DNA from: Octopus vulgaris
Lineage: Eukaryota
NCBI GenBank assembly: GCA_951406725.2
Contig: OX597830.1
Span: 3,782,001-3,846,000 of the forward strand
Direction: 5' to 3'
DNA length: 64,000 nt
Within the stretch, counting starts at the first letter, position 1, and the number at the start of each line of letters is the position of its first letter. The position numbers and the translations under genes are program-made. The notes beneath the pieces are model-generated. The model was not told where the DNA came from, did no database searches, and worked only from the letters and a program-made list of their open reading frames with translations. This document shows positions 6,210 to 55,224 of this stretch, one piece after another.

Positions 6210-8430
6210 ATGTTGCATCATTTCTCATGTAAATACCCAGGTCACGCACTGATTGTGCCTCTGGGATTGCAATACTTCCAGGTCCAGTGTATTTATTGGG
6301 TATTGCATTTAGTTTTGCATGCTGATAGCATAAAGCTTGAAACATTTCAGCATTGAACTGCATGCTATTCTTTTCAGCCCATTTGTATATTTTGTCCAGC
6401 TCACATTACAGGTGCTTAGTGTCTTCAGGGTTCTGTATTACCTGTGAAACTTTTGTATCATCTGTATAACTTGTGATAGTGGCTCTCTGCGTGGCTGAGA
6501 GCATGTCTGAGAGGGCCATTATGAACACTAGGGATCCTAAAACAGTACCTTGCGGAACACCGCTCACTATTTGCATGTTAATGGAGGTGGTCCCATTGGC
6601 TACTACCACCTGACCTCTATCCTTCAGAAAGCCATTCTCCCAATTTTTCAACTATGCCAAGATCACGCAGTTTGTGACATATCATTCCATGATCGACTTT
6701 ATCAAAGGCCTTTGCAAAGTCAAGATATATCACTTCCACATTTGAGTGGTTGAGCAGTTGTTTCAGCACCCAGTCATAGTGTTGTAGGAGATGAGTTAGG
6801 CAGCTTCTTCCTGGTTGGAAACCATGTTGGGTGTCAGGCAGCAAGTCATTTTCTTCAAGGAAGGCGATTAGTTTCCTTCTGACTATTCGTTCCATGACCT
6901 TGCTGATGTGTGAGGTCAGAGAGATAGGTCTGTAGTTCTTGGCCTCCACTCTGCTACCTCCTTTATGTATAGGGCATATTTTACCCTCCTTCAGTTTTCT
7001 TGGAAGTTTGCCAGTTGCAAGGAAGCTCTGAAAGAGCCACTGCAGTGGTCTTGCTAGGAGTCTCTTACATACTTTTAGAAGGATTGCTGGGAATCCATCG
7101 GGGCCAGTATCTGAGTTTGTTTTCATTTCATCTATAGCCTTTATATTGATGTAATCAATCATCGCCGCCTCTGACCCCATATCTGCAGTGGTGAAGAAGT
7201 CCGTTGGATTGCTGACTTGAAAATGCCCTAGGGGTGGAGTGAAAATACCTTTGAATTGCTCATTTAGTATTTCACTTATCCACGTTGGATTTCCTCTGAG
7301 TGTGCCATCCTTTTCAAGGAGTGGCCCTATCCTACAGTGCACTGTAGCTGTTTCTTTGGCATACCTGTAGAAAGCTCTGGGGTTAGATTTTATATTGTCT
7401 ATAGCCCAGGCTTCTTTGTCTGCTCTTTCTTTTTCATGGGAGAGTTGCAGACATTTTTCAATTTCCAACAGTTTTATTTTCAGGTGGGACTTTTCACTGC
7501 TTTCAATTTGTTTCTTTAGACGATTTGAAACTTTTGTACGCCGTCTCATAAGAATTTTCCTCTCTCTGGGGATTTTGTTCTTGTGTACAGTGGCTTTTCT
7601 CTCTGGAACACATTTGTAGCATATGGCTTGCATTACAGACATGAATTGTTGAAGTTTCATGTCGATGTCTGGCGAGGGGAGACATTCAGGCCAGTTTTGT
7701 TTGAGGATCTCTTTCTCAATTTGTTTCCAGTTTGCCTTATGGAAGTTCAAGCTGGAAAGATTCTGAGAGTTTCTTATAGGCTGCATGTCCATGCTTTCCT
7801 TTGGCCCGTACATGGTCAGCTCTACCATGTTGTGATCCGAGAGTAGTGTCGGTGTCACTTACACATTATGGATGAGATCCATATTATTTGTTAAGCAGAG
7901 ATCCAGTATGTTACCTGCCCTGTTTGGTTGGAGTATTATTTGCTCCATGTATAGAGTGTTGATGAGGTTCAGGATGGACCTCGCCTGTCCTCGTTTGCAT
8001 CGTGTCATTCCTGGGAGAGAAAGGCCCTCAGGCCATCTGACATAGGGCAGATTGTACAGCAGGTTAGCTGTTGTACAATCTTTTGTGCCATGCACAAAAA
8101 GATTCTTGTTCAGCAGCTGCCCTTTCAATATCATGTTGATGGTTTGTAACACGCACTACATCTGCGTACCTCCGTTTTGCAGCAGGTGGTGAGTAGTCCT
8201 TTCCTTTTCCTTTTGGTAGTTGGTTTCTGCCCTGTTTCATACTTATGTGGCAGGGTCTTTGGTGTGCAAAACGGCAGCCTGCACCCTCCTCTCCATGCCA
8301 GCAGACACCTTTCAGTTAGAATTTACACATTCGTGTGTGCTGTCTCTTTCTATCCTTTTTGGTATATGTATAGTCAGGTTTGCTTCTTTCCTTGGCTGTT
8401 TCATCTTTTGGTTTTGTTTGAGTTTTAGTA
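6210..8430 (-). mobile_element. CR1/L2-group LINE copy B, degenerate, 3' end lost; retains ORF1 remnant
   Basis: ORFs 7859-8152, 6617-7858 ([30 protein letters not shown]) and 6406-6651 ([13 protein letters not shown]) are close to copies D/E/F. Deletion at ~8055 joins the ORF1 end to mid-APE. Confidence 0.9.
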
Positions 8431-14174: not shown

Positions 14175-16990
<2,816 letters not shown>

Positions 16991-16996
16991 ATATAA

Positions 16997-17283
<287 letters not shown>

Positions 17284-17300
17284 TATATATATATAAATAC

Positions 17301-18506
17301 TTTCAACAATTGAGGGTAAAATTAATTAATTAATTAATCAATTTCACCAAGTATTCAGTATACAAAGGGACCATTTAAGGCGAATTCAAATTATTACATT
17401 ATATAAAAGGGCTTAGTAAAATAAATTACTTTGCCGCATACTGAACTCATTAGAAATAGCAGCTAAAAAAACTTTTTTAAAACTATCTCCAATACTTAAA
17501 GAAAACCTCTCTCATATAGTGTTTGCTCAACTCAACTCCCGAAAGTATGGTGGTAGAGACATTAAAAAATCAAATGCAAAGGTTATTTGAGAACGTACGT
17601 TTCAAGATTAGTCAAAATCGACACTTCTATCATCAGCTCAGAACTTCCTGGTTTGGATTTGAAAACACTGAAAGTGGGAGCATACCCTTTCGGCCTGTTA
17701 TCGCCTCTGAAGATCTGCTCAAAACTAACAGTGCTAGCAAATTCAAATATGCAAGCGAAGAATTTCTGCTCTCCCCTTTCCACCAGCGTGGGTTAAAATC
17801 AGCAAACACTATGCTTTTTTCGGTAAAATCCGAGGCATTATATAGAGAGAGATGAATTATAATTTCAACAATTGAGGGTAAAATTAATTAATTAATTAAT
17901 CAATTTCACCAAGTATTCAGTATACAAAGGGACCATATAATGTAATAATTTGAATTCGCCTTAAATGGTCCCTTTGTATACTGAATACTTGGTGAAATTG
18001 ATTAATTAATTAATTAATTTTACCCTCAATTGTTGAAATTATAATTCATCTCTCTCTATATAATGCCTCAGATTTTACCGAAAAAAGCATAGTGTTTGCT
18101 GATTTTAACCCACGCTGGTGGAAAGGAAGCAGAAATTCTTCGCTTGCTGTATTTGAATTTGCTAGCACTGTTAGTTTTGAGCAGATCTTCAGAGGCGATA
18201 ACAGGCTCGAAAGGGTATGCTCCCACTTTCAGTGTTTTCAAATCCAAACCAGGGAGTTCTGAGCTGATGATAGAAGTGTCGATTTTGACTAATCTTGAAA
18301 CGTACGTTCTCAAAAACCTTTGCATTTGATTTTTTAATGTCTCTACCACCATACTTTTGTGAGTTGAGTTGAGCAAACACTATGAGAGAGGTTTTTTCTT
18401 TAAGTATTGGAGATAGTTTTAAAAAAGTTTTTTTAGCTGCTATTTCTAATGAGTTCAGTATGCGGCAAAGTAATTTATTTTACTAAGCCCTTTTATATAA
18501 TGTAAT

Positions 18507-18509
<3 letters not shown>
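17301..18509. mobile_element. Non-coding hammerhead-containing element: ~560-nt tandem monomer plus inverted copy
   Basis: 17301-17374 repeats at 17863-17936 (period 562). 17935-18509 is a reverse-complement, circularly permuted monomer with a 15-nt terminal redundancy. Confidence 0.85.
18257..18315 (+). ncRNA. Type I hammerhead ribozyme motif (mirror copy at 17586-17643 on -)
   Basis: TGAG-CTGATGA(18264)-tAGA...GTC-loop-GAC...TCTt-GAAA(18297)-CGTACG-TT-CTCA; palindromic stem III; predicted GUU site. Confidence 0.7.
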
Positions 18510-18584
<75 letters not shown>

Positions 18585-18585
18585 G

Positions 18586-18627
<42 letters not shown>

Positions 18628-18666
18628 TATAAAATATATATATATATATATAAAATATATATAAAA

Positions 18667-22273
<3,607 letters not shown>

Positions 22274-22843: not shown

Positions 22844-28660
<5,817 letters not shown>

Positions 28661-28677
28661 TATATAAATATATATAT

Positions 28678-28811
<134 letters not shown>

Positions 28812-31800
28812 CCTTAAATCCTTAAAAATGTTTTAGCCCGAAGGCCGCGGCCATGCTGGGGCACCACCGCTGAATGAGCCACACTAGTTTGTGAATCCAC
28901 CTCTGATACGTGGCACTTGATCAACAAGGGAGTTCGATGCTGCTGCCCGCATCCGTGTCTCCTGTCGTGAGGTAGGTTCATCTGGGACTCCCAACAAGAA
29001 GAGATCCAGTTTAGTTTTAAAGAAACCCACATCCACACCATGTAAGTCTCTCAGGCATTTAGGGAGGATGTTGAAAAGCTGTGGTCCTCTGAAACCCAAG
29101 CTGTTGCAGTATCTGGACCTGTATTTTGATGGTGATGTTGGAATCCTTGGCACCACGCAGCGGCGCCCCGTTCTGCGGTTGGAGTAACTTTGAATGCCAA
29201 AGTTTGGGACAAGACCCTCCAGGATTTTCCAGATGTATATTACTGCATATCTCTCCCGCCTCCGCTCCAGGGAGAAGAGGTTTAATACCTTCAGTCTTTC
29301 CCAGTAGCTGACATTTTGCATTGAGACGATTTTCTTTGTGTAGCTTCTCTGAGTTGCTTCGAGTTCTGCTGTTTGTTTTATATTGTGTGGTGACCAAAGT
29401 TGGGAGCAGTAGTCCAAGCGGCTGAGGACAAATGTTTTCCATAGGACCATCAGTGTCTCCTTCTCTCTTGTTCTGAAAGTTCGGAGAATCCATCCAGCTA
29501 GCCGTCTGCATTTTATCACCAGATTAGCAATATGCATTTGGAAAGATGCATCATTGCTCATGTCAATGCCCAGGTCACGCACTGATTTTGACTCAGGGAT
29601 TGCAATTCTTCCTGGGCCAGTGTATCCAGTCTTCACGTCATTTACCTTTGTGTGCCAGTAGCGCAGGGCCTGGAACTTACCTGCATTAAACTGCATGTTG
29701 TTGTCCTCAGCCCACCTGTATATTGTGTCCAGCTCATGTTGCAGATGCGCAATATTTTCAGGGTTCTGTATTGCGTGGGAGACCTTTGTGTCATCTGCAT
29801 AGCTAGCAAGGGTGGTCATCGTAGCAACTGAAGGCATGTCTGAAAGGGCCACTATGAACATCAGTGGCCCCAAGACAGTGCCCTGTGGGACACCGCTTGT
29901 TATTTGCGTTTCCCTGGAGGTGGCTCCATTGCTCACAACTGCCTGTTTTCTGTCTTTTAGGAAGTTGTGCAGCCACTCTCCAAGTTTCCCGCCTATGCCG
30001 AGACCACGCAGTTTGTGACAGATCATACCATGGTCGACTTTATCAAAGGCTTTTGCAAAGTCAAGATATATTACATCCACATTTGAGCCATTTAGTAGCT
30101 GTTTCAACACCCAGTCATAGTGTTGCAGGAGCTGTGTTAGGCAGCCTCTACCTGGTCGAAATCCATGCTGGGTGTCAGACAGTAAGTCATTTTCTTCAAG
30201 GAACATGATTAGTTTCTTACGGACTATTCGTTCCATGACTTTGCTGATGTGTGAGGTCAGAGAGATAGGCCTATAATTTTTAGCATCTGCTCTGCTACCT
30301 CCCTTATGGATAGGGCATATTACCCCCTCTTTCAGTTTGACTGGGAGCTTACCACTTGCAAGAAAGCTCTGAAAAAGAAGCTGTAGCGGTTTTGCAAGGG
30401 CTCGTTTGCACGATTTGAGAAGGATCGCTGGGAATCCATCAGGTCCAGCAGCTGAGTTTGTGTCAATCTCATCAATGGCTAGTGTGATATCATCTTCTTC
30501 GATGTTGATGTACTCAATTTTTGTCTCTTTGGCCGCTGGTAAAGTGGCAAAGAATTCTTCTGGGTTGTTTACTTGCCTGTGTCCTAGAGGTGTAGTGAAT
30601 ACACTTTGGAACTGTTCGTTCAGTATTTCACTTATCCTCGTGGGATTTCCTGTGAGAGAGCCATCTTTTTGGAAGAGAGGTCCTATTCTCTGGTGCACTG
30701 TGGCTGTCTCTTTGGCAAACTTAAAGAAAGCTTTAGGGTTTGATTTTATATTTTCTATTACCCAAGCTTCTTTATCTGCTCTCTCCTTTTCATGGGACTG
30801 ATGTAGACTTTTCTCAGTTTCCATTAGCATTCTTTCGAGCCGAGACTTCTCACCACTTTTGGTGTGCTTGCTCAGGCGGTTTGCAATCCTTGTCCGTCGT
30901 CTCATAAGAATCCTCCTTTCTCTAGGGATCCTGTTTTTATTCTTGTGTGTGCTGGCCCTGCACATTGGGACATATTTGTCACATATGGCTTGTATTATGG
31001 ACATGAAGTGTTTGTGTTTCATGTTTATGTCCGGTGTGGAGAGACATTCAGGCCAATCCTGTTTGAGGATCTCTTTCTCAATCGACTTCCAGTTGGCTTT
31101 ATGAAAGTTTAAGTTGGAGAGATGGTGGGTGCTTCGTATAGGCTGTGTGTCTGCGGGGGCTTTTGTTCCATACGTAGACAGCTCTATTATGTTGTGATCC
31201 GAGATCATTGTCGGCATCACATTAACATTATGGATAATATCCATATTGTTTGTAAAGCAGAGATCCAGTATATTATCTGCCCTTGTTGGTTGCAGAACTA
31301 TTTGCTCCATGAAAGAGGTATTTGTGAGATGGAGCAGGGACTCCACCTGTGCCTGCTGATGGTGTGTCATCCCTGGGAGCATCTGCCCCCAGGCCATTCC
31401 ACATTGGGGAGGTTAAAGTCACCCATGAAGAATACACTGTTGTGCTGTTCAAGGTTGGTGAGGACTTCTCCTATTTTTGTTAGGCAGTCTTCAAACATGC
31501 CTGAGTGTTTTGGGGCGTCTGGTGGGCGATATGTAGTGCATATGACGATATTCAGTTGTCTTATGTGTACAATTTGAGTTTCACATACTGAGTTTGAATA
31601 TGACAGCAGGACCTGGGGCGTGAGGTCATCTCGGATGTACATTGCAACTCCACCATGGCTCCTCCCTTTTCTATCTGTGCGTATGACTGCATATTGCGGC
31701 ATGTGTATTTCTGCATCACCTATATCGGGTTCAAGATGCGTTTCTGTGAGTGCCATGCATATAGCTTGATTGCATGTCACAAGGTCTCTCAGGAATGAAA

Positions 31801-31839
31801 TTTTCTTTTTACAGTTTCCGCGCAGCAGCCCTCCTACAT

Positions 31840-32592
<753 letters not shown>

Positions 32593-54112: not shown

Positions 54113-54480
54113 TATATATGTACATATATATATATATATATATATATAGTAGTAAAGCTAATTGTTCAAACCACAGTGACTATCGTTATCATTTATATGA
54201 GTAGAAAGTGTGTTTCTGCCAGTGTTTACATTTGTACGATTTTTCTATGAGTGTGTTTACTAGGGGAACCTTAGAGAAAATAATATGGAAGAGTTCAGAG
54301 TTACAAATGTTACAAAATCTCCTGCCCTTATCAAAAGGAAAGGATACAGACAGTATGAACCAATCTAACTTGAAAATTATATTGTTGTCTTTAAGACGCC
54401 AAACTAATTTACTTAGCCCTGTGCTATGTTGTTTTTTACTATCCCTGAATGTTGAGTAGTGGTTTGAAATTCTTTTGGAT

Positions 54481-54772
54481 ATCCAAAAGAATTTCAAACC
54501 ACTACTCAACATTCAGGGATAGTAAAAAACGACATAGCACAGGGCTAAGTAAATTAGTTTGGCGTCTTAAAGACAACAATATAATTTTCAAGTTAGATTG
54601 GTTCATACTGTCTGTATCCTTTCCTTTTGATAAGGGCAGGAGATTTTGTAACATTTGTAACTCTGAACTCTTCCATATTATTTTCTCTAAGGTTCCCCTA
54701 GTAAACACACTCATAGAAAAATCGTACAAATGTAAACACTGGCAGAAACACACTTTCTACTCATATAAATGA
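54481..54772 (+). pseudogene. C-terminal part of a Penelope-type GIY-YIG endonuclease (mirror copy at 54189-54480 on -)
   Basis: KRISNHYSTFR...STGLSKLVWRLKD...WFIL...CNICNSE..II...LVN...KCKH resembles the R..H...S.LSK..W.LK...W.I...C.LC..E...N...CRH pattern of PLE endonucleases. The GIY/YIG motifs themselves are truncated away. Confidence 0.75.
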
Positions 54773-55224
54773 TAACGATAGTCACTGTGGTTTGAACAAT
54801 TAGCTTTACGTCCACCCCACTGCTATAGAGAAATTCTTTCCTAAGCCTTCGAACATTCTTTCAATCAACGTGCCCTTCCCTCTCCACTTGTTCCCTACAT
54901 ATTATTCCTTTATACCTTCTCTTCCTACTATCTATCTTTGACGTCTGTCTCTCTCTCACACACACAATCACACACAGACACAAATACAGTTATACACACA
55001 CACAAACACACGCACTCATTAACACAAGCACACACCCACACATTTCCATGCATACAGCAAACATACTGTTCCCTACCTATTATTACTTTATCCCTTCTCT
55101 TCCTACTATCTATTTTTGACGTCAATTTTTCTAACAGTTTAAAAAAAAAAACACTCATTATCGCTTCGTTTACCATGTAGGCAATCATCGAAATTTTTGT
55201 TTGTCTTGTTGTCGAGAGAGGCTC

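Follow-up and report, generated by a model that had tools for sequence, protein, structure and literature searches.

A two-armed retrozyme insertion in Octopus vulgaris and the two fixed end sites of its family

The element at positions 17301–18509 of the window, by which we mean the whole 64,000-nt stretch of Octopus vulgaris DNA analyzed here, is an insertion of an animal non-LTR retrozyme family and agrees with such elements in every feature that could be tested. In this family the 3′ ends of the insertions fall at two fixed sites, A and B, and all 50 classifiable two-arm loci follow the rule of one arm per site. As to the origin of the insertions, the involvement of the machinery of Penelope-like elements (PLEs) is very probable and the separate priming of two cDNAs probable; a circular template is moderately favored, and we lean slightly towards the complete reading, in which a PLE reverse-transcribes a circular monomer by twin priming.

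The element consists of two back-to-back arms inside a TA microsatellite, each of which ends at a different fixed site. The left arm (17301–17936, minus strand) comprises 1.13 monomers and runs, in hammerhead sense, from a variable 5′ end at 17936 to site B at ~17301, and the right arm (17935–18509, plus strand) comprises one monomer plus 15 nt and runs from a variable 5′ end at 17935 to site A at about 18500–18509. On the hammerhead strand the arms point outward and meet head to head at 17935–17936 with a 2-nt AT overlap; junctions in the family range from an overlap of 30 nt to a gap of 32 nt. The element is flanked by (TA)n tracts at 16993–17300 and 18510–18666, and no target-site duplication was discernible in these flanks. 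The original prediction had described the left arm as ~1.13 tandem monomers and the right arm as the reverse complement of one circularly permuted monomer with a 15-nt terminal redundancy from 17935, joined to the left arm at an AT microhomology. This description is borne out by an exact 74-nt direct repeat with a period of 562 in the left arm, by the 96–97% identity (indels included) between one arm and the reverse complement of the other, and by the AT common to both arms at the junction. The differences between the arms are mostly small indels, which suggests some consensus error in the arm sequences. The prediction that the element contains no credible ORF likewise held, as the hammerhead strand has no ATG ORF longer than 34 aa and the opposite strand none longer than 94 aa; the test for coding capacity gave 18–34 aa sense and 94–102 aa antisense. 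The monomer folds strongly, with z-scores of −5.5 as a linear molecule and −5.3 as a circle. A match to the Rfam entry MIR7533 was below the gathering score and was rejected, since it reflects the long inverted repeat.

Each monomer carries one hammerhead motif, as had been proposed, and the motif is of type I. In the right arm it occupies 18260–18312 (plus strand) with the core elements CTGATGA (18264–18270), GAAA (18297–18300) and GTT (18306–18308), stem I formed by 18260–63/18309–12, a U·U mismatch followed by stem II (18272–74/18293–95), and a palindromic stem III; the CUGANGA core, GAAA, the NUH triplet and three stems of a type I hammerhead are thus all present. The predicted cut lies after GTT at 18308, and for the second copy in the left arm (17588–17640, minus strand) after 17592 on the minus strand. 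As an Rfam scan of the locus gave no hammerhead match at E ≤ 1, the assignment is based on covariation, which was evaluated in an alignment of 12 rows chosen by hand from the retrozyme family of the locus and its sister families. Here, 89% of the cells were paired, compared to 29–46% in slid controls, and 22 cells were changed on both sides; none of 500 shuffles reached as high a value, a count that is not a probability because the rows are related. Sister families have U3–A8 in place of the C3–G8 pair, and covariation is seen in stems I and II. A single-sequence fold of the 86-nt hammerhead region did not give the hammerhead fold (z = +1.0). The substitution rate was 0.6% per base in the hammerhead core and stems versus 3.8% elsewhere, and the 80-nt hammerhead region was identical in 81 of 98 near-full monomers. 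Self-cleavage after GUU is predicted from the core and its covariation.

The octopus genome (2.8 Gb) contains 1,580 exact copies of a 25-mer from the hammerhead and none of the reversed control. The repeat is a young and very abundant family of dispersed, mobile, non-coding elements with tandem arrays of up to 16 monomers. We analyzed 80 insertions, namely that of the window, the 39 loci chosen as its best matches, a set with a bias towards full monomers, and 40 loci on contig C1, taken consecutively from the first 100 25-mer hits listed; locus L070, which consisted of flank only, was omitted, and L103, which comprises two separate insertions, was not used for the variant count. There were 53 simple two-arm, 19 single-arm and 8 complex insertions. 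Arm lengths in the two-arm loci ranged from 39 to 6,379 nt, and one arm measured about 8.9 kb. A monomer of ~560 nt, which the original prediction took to exceed the usual retrozyme size, is not unusual, as the available text of a recent preprint reports 51–972 bp (10.64898/2026.07.22.740005), a range that includes the octopus monomer. Assembled contigs of four sequencing runs, whose status as RNA was guessed, covered most of the monomer; such contigs show no level, ends or circles, and a LINE control (2,067 exact 25-mers) was as deep as or deeper than the retrozyme in the same four runs.

The original prediction expected the copy ends to be randomly permuted genome-wide. This was true for the 5′ ends, which were uniform round the monomer (n = 125, KS P = 0.17), but not for the 3′ ends, which in the 80 insertions fell at two AT-rich sites about 95 nt apart: site A at monomer position about 548–560 and site B about 95 nt further. 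The 3′ end ran into (TA)n in 61 of 62 cases at site A and in all 65 at site B, together 126 of 127. One A arm combined with one B arm was found in 50 of the 53 two-arm loci, the combinations A+A and B+B never occurred, and the other 3 loci had an off-site end. The ~94 nt by which the left arm of the window locus had been said to exceed a simple fold-back copy of the right arm are real, but they equal the distance between sites A and B and do not mark a circle. Similarly, the 15-nt terminal redundancy is present, yet it was rejected both as a target-site duplication and as a signature of a circle, since it simply reflects an arm that begins 15 nt ahead of one site A and terminates at the following one. 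The rule was also followed in 13 of 13 rows of sister family C, representing 11 distinct loci, in 28 rows of family B, a sample biased by a query that was itself two-armed, and in 16 of 16 further two-arm loci of sister families picked by eye. Of 17 fetched copies of an autonomous PLE of this genome with a 781-aa frame, the two that possess an inverted pLTR arm (L146 and L148) showed the same layout.

The insertions display 5′ truncation, an inverted 5′ copy, a one-sided tail and a microsatellite target, which is the layout of PLE insertions. In the parts of the PLE literature available to us, an optional tail of 30–40 bp at one end and an inverted, 5′-truncated copy are given as a signature of these elements (PMC8557442, PMC3846280), and a PLE protein studied in purified form cuts the two strands of AT-rich DNA, extends both, and begins reverse transcription at two internal sites bounding the tail (PMC11167929). 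The two-site pattern of the octopus family is a long version of this PLE tail. In the literature searched, mostly the main texts of open-access papers, no account of the one-arm-per-site rule was found.

Sites A and B lie in a terminal module of ~200 nt, which is about 70–75% identical in sister families that have other hammerheads and bodies. It is common to the short family B and to sister retrozymes of 529–561 nt with different bodies and a UUGAYAA-core hammerhead, and further relatives are 70–88% identical over the whole monomer. In the window a complete module with both end sites is present at 17301–17480 (minus strand), in the order hairpin, CCCT and site A, long-range helix, hairpin, ACCCT and site B, and the site-A half closes the right arm at 18425–18509 (plus strand); each end site is preceded by a hairpin and a CCCT motif. 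The long-range tail helix was absent from the RNAalifold prediction. When this putative helix was specified by hand, 78% of it was paired and 2 pairs were changed on both sides in 9 related rows, which weakly suggests its existence. The module is likely an element for recognition or loading by the reverse transcriptase. Family B consists of ~280-bp two-armed elements that contain nearly nothing but the module (2,543 first-look candidates; L118:2505–2790 and L161–L190), and its site-A motif looks similar to a telomeric CCCTAA unit. The arrays of family C (L258, G000:C2:84286500-84294500; L259; L260; L263) are built of 529–561-nt monomers with a U3–A8 hammerhead core and have the same module and end rule.

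Information on the template comes from the 5′ ends and the make-up of the arrays. No pile-up of 5′ ends was observed at the cut site (1 of 125 within 5 nt, 2.5 expected), and no indel scar was present at the cleavage site in 219 passes. A cleaved linear monomer is too short to have served as template for 47 of 50 A arms and for 37 of 50 B arms, so that template jumping on cut monomers is unlikely. The divergence between arms was 0.45% within a locus versus 4.4% between loci (46 pairs), and the nearest sequence was the arm of the same locus in 33 of 39 cases; judged by these values, both arms come from one haplotype, with one template per insertion. Of 556 shared-variant cases, 529 had the variant in every copy of the locus. 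Among the locus-private substitutions, 26 in 19 loci were fixed in every copy, 20 of them spanning both arms, 88 were singletons and 15 were partly shared, and 58 distinct sets of fixed variants occurred in 71 loci. Clonal arrays, fixed private variants and the number of sets together indicate a frequent step from monomer to multimer, which rolling reverse transcription of a circle provides. The 15 partly shared variants, present in only some monomers of an array and often in neighbors (L037, L046, L060, L062, L075), argue against a circle, as they are not predicted by independent laps round one monomer circle. In L046 a variant at position 453 occurred in passes 3, 6, 8 and 11, and in L063 a variant at position 12 occurred in passes 12, 14 and 16, a scatter that may reflect higher-order repeats, multimeric templates or noise in the consensus. 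A later history at the DNA level, or consensus errors, may also have shaped the long arrays. The idea that the element derives from an RNA longer than a monomer through a PLE reverse transcriptase fits every test; the case for a circle is indirect, coming from clonal arrays and scar-free cut sites in the family and not from the window locus.

By analogy with known retrozymes, read-through transcripts of tandem copies would cleave themselves after GUU, and the monomers would be ligated to circles of ~558 nt. A PLE complex with reverse transcriptase and GIY-YIG domains, possibly a dimer, would bind the ~200-nt terminal module and nick the two strands of (TA)n, from which two cDNAs would be primed on a single RNA, probably a circle. 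One cDNA would start from site A and the other from site B, 95 nt downstream, on opposite target strands, presumably helped by microhomology between UAUA and (TA)n. Each reverse transcriptase would then circle for a variable distance before the two cDNA ends were joined head to head by microhomology. We tentatively propose, as a bolder version with less confidence, that each insertion is the work of one PLE complex, asymmetric in build, which copies a single RNA circle in rolling fashion from two fixed starts at once, one per target strand, and that the two-site module is a portable PLE-loading signal common to several retrozyme families with different hammerheads and bodies. Two published observations speak against the main reading: a single purified PLE used uncleaved RNA in vitro and did not require the hammerhead (PMC11167929), and, according to the accessible text of the retrozyme study, 8 of 9 Xenopus retrozyme dimers showed no cleavage in vitro (10.64898/2026.07.22.740005).

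The use of uncleaved RNA in vitro fits a different template, an uncleaved linear read-through multimer or partial tandem from a source array, used by the same PLE machinery from the same start sites, with arrays growing later by unequal exchange and the hammerhead of little weight for mobility. Such an origin is unlikely, though it has several results on its side. If the arms may overlap, a linear template of 663 nt is enough at the window locus and 814 nt at the median locus, and for 38 of 50 loci two monomers or fewer would do; neighboring monomers of long arrays have private variants in common; and unprocessed RNA is what the purified PLE accepted. It would need another route from monomer to homogeneous multimer to account for the 26 fixed private variants and the 58 haplotypes in 71 loci, however, and if the arms do not overlap on one linear RNA the median need rises to 1,278 nt, whereas only 6 of 40 C1 loci have an arm of that length. 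Nor does it agree with the hammerhead, in which core and stems vary 6-fold less than the remaining sequence and show covariation between families.

A quite improbable alternative concerns the number of cDNAs: a single cDNA primed at A or B could form the inverted arm by fold-back self-priming, with endonuclease resolution at the other site. Self-priming with endonuclease resolution of the tail has been proposed for PLEs, as the available parts of two papers describe (PMC3846280, PMC8557442), and in 9 of 50 arm pairs the 5′ ends coincided within 10 nt (P about 1e-4). Non-nested pairs were also fewer than expected from random pairing (12 versus 19.5 ± 3.1), so that some loci may be fold-backs. 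However, these 12 of 50 pairs are not fold-back copies of each other, and both ends of the tail are start sites of reverse transcription in vitro (PMC11167929). The window locus belongs to the non-nested pairs, which excludes simple fold-back there. Finally, it is extremely improbable that the element is a one-off local duplication, a fold-back artefact of the assembly or a plain pLTR of an ORF-bearing PLE, an idea to which the small indels that make up most arm differences lend some support. The 1,580 hammerhead copies, the two end sites shared genome-wide and the non-nested arms speak against these readings, and the local duplication and the artefact are refuted; this refutation does not extend to a past pLTR origin.

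A pLTR attached to a PLE ORF had been named as the other outcome that would contradict the prediction, and no PLE ORF joined to the repeat was seen in the loci inspected. PLE protein fragments in the flanks of L100, L118 and L137 were rejected as partners, being separate neighboring insertions where inspected. The terminal module was joined to an ORF in none of the 87 (overlapping) PLE-bearing loci scanned and in none of 50 further tail-bearing loci; the search covered a small part of the PLEs of the genome, from families with a C-terminal EN, and 3′ ends other than those of Naiads. GIY-YIG and protein searches yielded PLE families with a 781-aa frame, a 574-aa frame and a ~1,210-aa frame, none of which had the module, and no ORF for reverse transcriptase plus GIY-YIG was seen between or beside the repeats. 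The young 781-aa family (L141–L157, e.g., L141:1430–6672) has an intact RT and GIY-YIG frame, in some copies an upstream 479-aa frame, a 456-bp pLTR, a tail of ~40 nt and a variant hammerhead with a UUGAUAA core. The very young ~1,210-aa family (L221–L257, e.g., L251:2252–6520), with copies 99% identical and a proline/serine-rich end to its frame, ends in (TA)n and carries a minimal hammerhead with a UUGAAGA core.

Twin priming by L1, in which two target-primed cDNAs joined by microhomology give rise to a 5′ inversion, uses a second priming site that is variable, whereas the octopus retrozyme has two fixed sites and uses either one a single time. Animal non-LTR retrozymes, as far as the available text of two studies describes them (PMC7229834, 10.64898/2026.07.22.740005), likewise consist of tandem, non-coding, AT-rich, self-paired units with one type I hammerhead each in a genome with active PLEs, and the U·U mismatch at the base of stem II of the octopus hammerhead resembles axolotl HHR_Amex2. 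Rolling-circle reverse transcription of retrozyme circles by a PLE was already proposed there, and circles and cleavage were demonstrated in other species, while the octopus family is known from its sequence. The main texts of these papers, in the portions available, mention neither arms in inverted orientation nor priming at fixed sites nor (TA)n as a target, and the latter study links retrozymes to pLTRs by sequence (10.64898/2026.07.22.740005), whereas no such partner was found for the octopus family. The EN+ PLEs Poseidon_Ac (PMC11167929), Adineta Penelope (PMC3846280) and Neptune/Naiad (PMC8557442), as partly accessible descriptions have it, share with it 5′ truncation, partial tandems, an inverted copy placed head to head, a tail confined to one end, targets that are AT-rich or (TA)n, and a hammerhead in the terminal repeat. 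The octopus element differs in having no ORF and a tail of about 95 nt instead of 30–40 nt, and the tail called optional in the available PLE descriptions (PMC3846280, PMC8557442) contrasts with its strict one-arm-per-site rule (50 of 50). Non-autonomous Chlamys elements such as MRC1 are also non-coding passengers of PLEs with multicopy head-to-tail insertions; according to the same partly available source, their 3′ end generally resembles that of the autonomous partner and most Chlamys elements have no canonical hammerhead (PMC8557442), in contrast to the octopus family, in which the hammerhead is conserved and for which the search revealed no partner.

How retrozymes return to DNA and how tandem, inverted and tailed PLE copies originate are both stated as open in the accessible text of these retrozyme (PMC7229834, 10.64898/2026.07.22.740005) and PLE papers. 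The octopus family provides countable footprints, namely a strict rule of one arm per site, 5′ ends that are uniformly distributed, clonal arrays and an RNA module with two sites that is conserved, so that both questions can be addressed by direct experiment on a 560-nt substrate; as the class of element was already known, the value of the finding is mechanistic and not categorical. Rolling-circle reading from two starts, if correct, would explain why PLE insertions are tandem, inverted and tailed, and any circular RNA with the module could be written into (TA)n DNA as a multimer.

The surroundings of the element contain young LINE copies (RVT_1) with TA-tract ends at 14251–16992 (minus strand), 18667–21071 (plus strand), 22890–26718 (plus strand), 6212–8054 and 28546–32017, the nearest three being 96–98% identical among themselves. 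The two copies flanking the element point outward and, being 5′-truncated at different points, mimic a large inverted repeat. These 96%-identical arms were rejected as part of the element because of their unequal truncation points and the third copy at 22890–26718. A near-perfect palindrome of 658 nt (99.7%) at 54152–54809, which has a TA microsatellite on the left but none on the right, may represent a further fold-back insertion or an artefact of the assembly.
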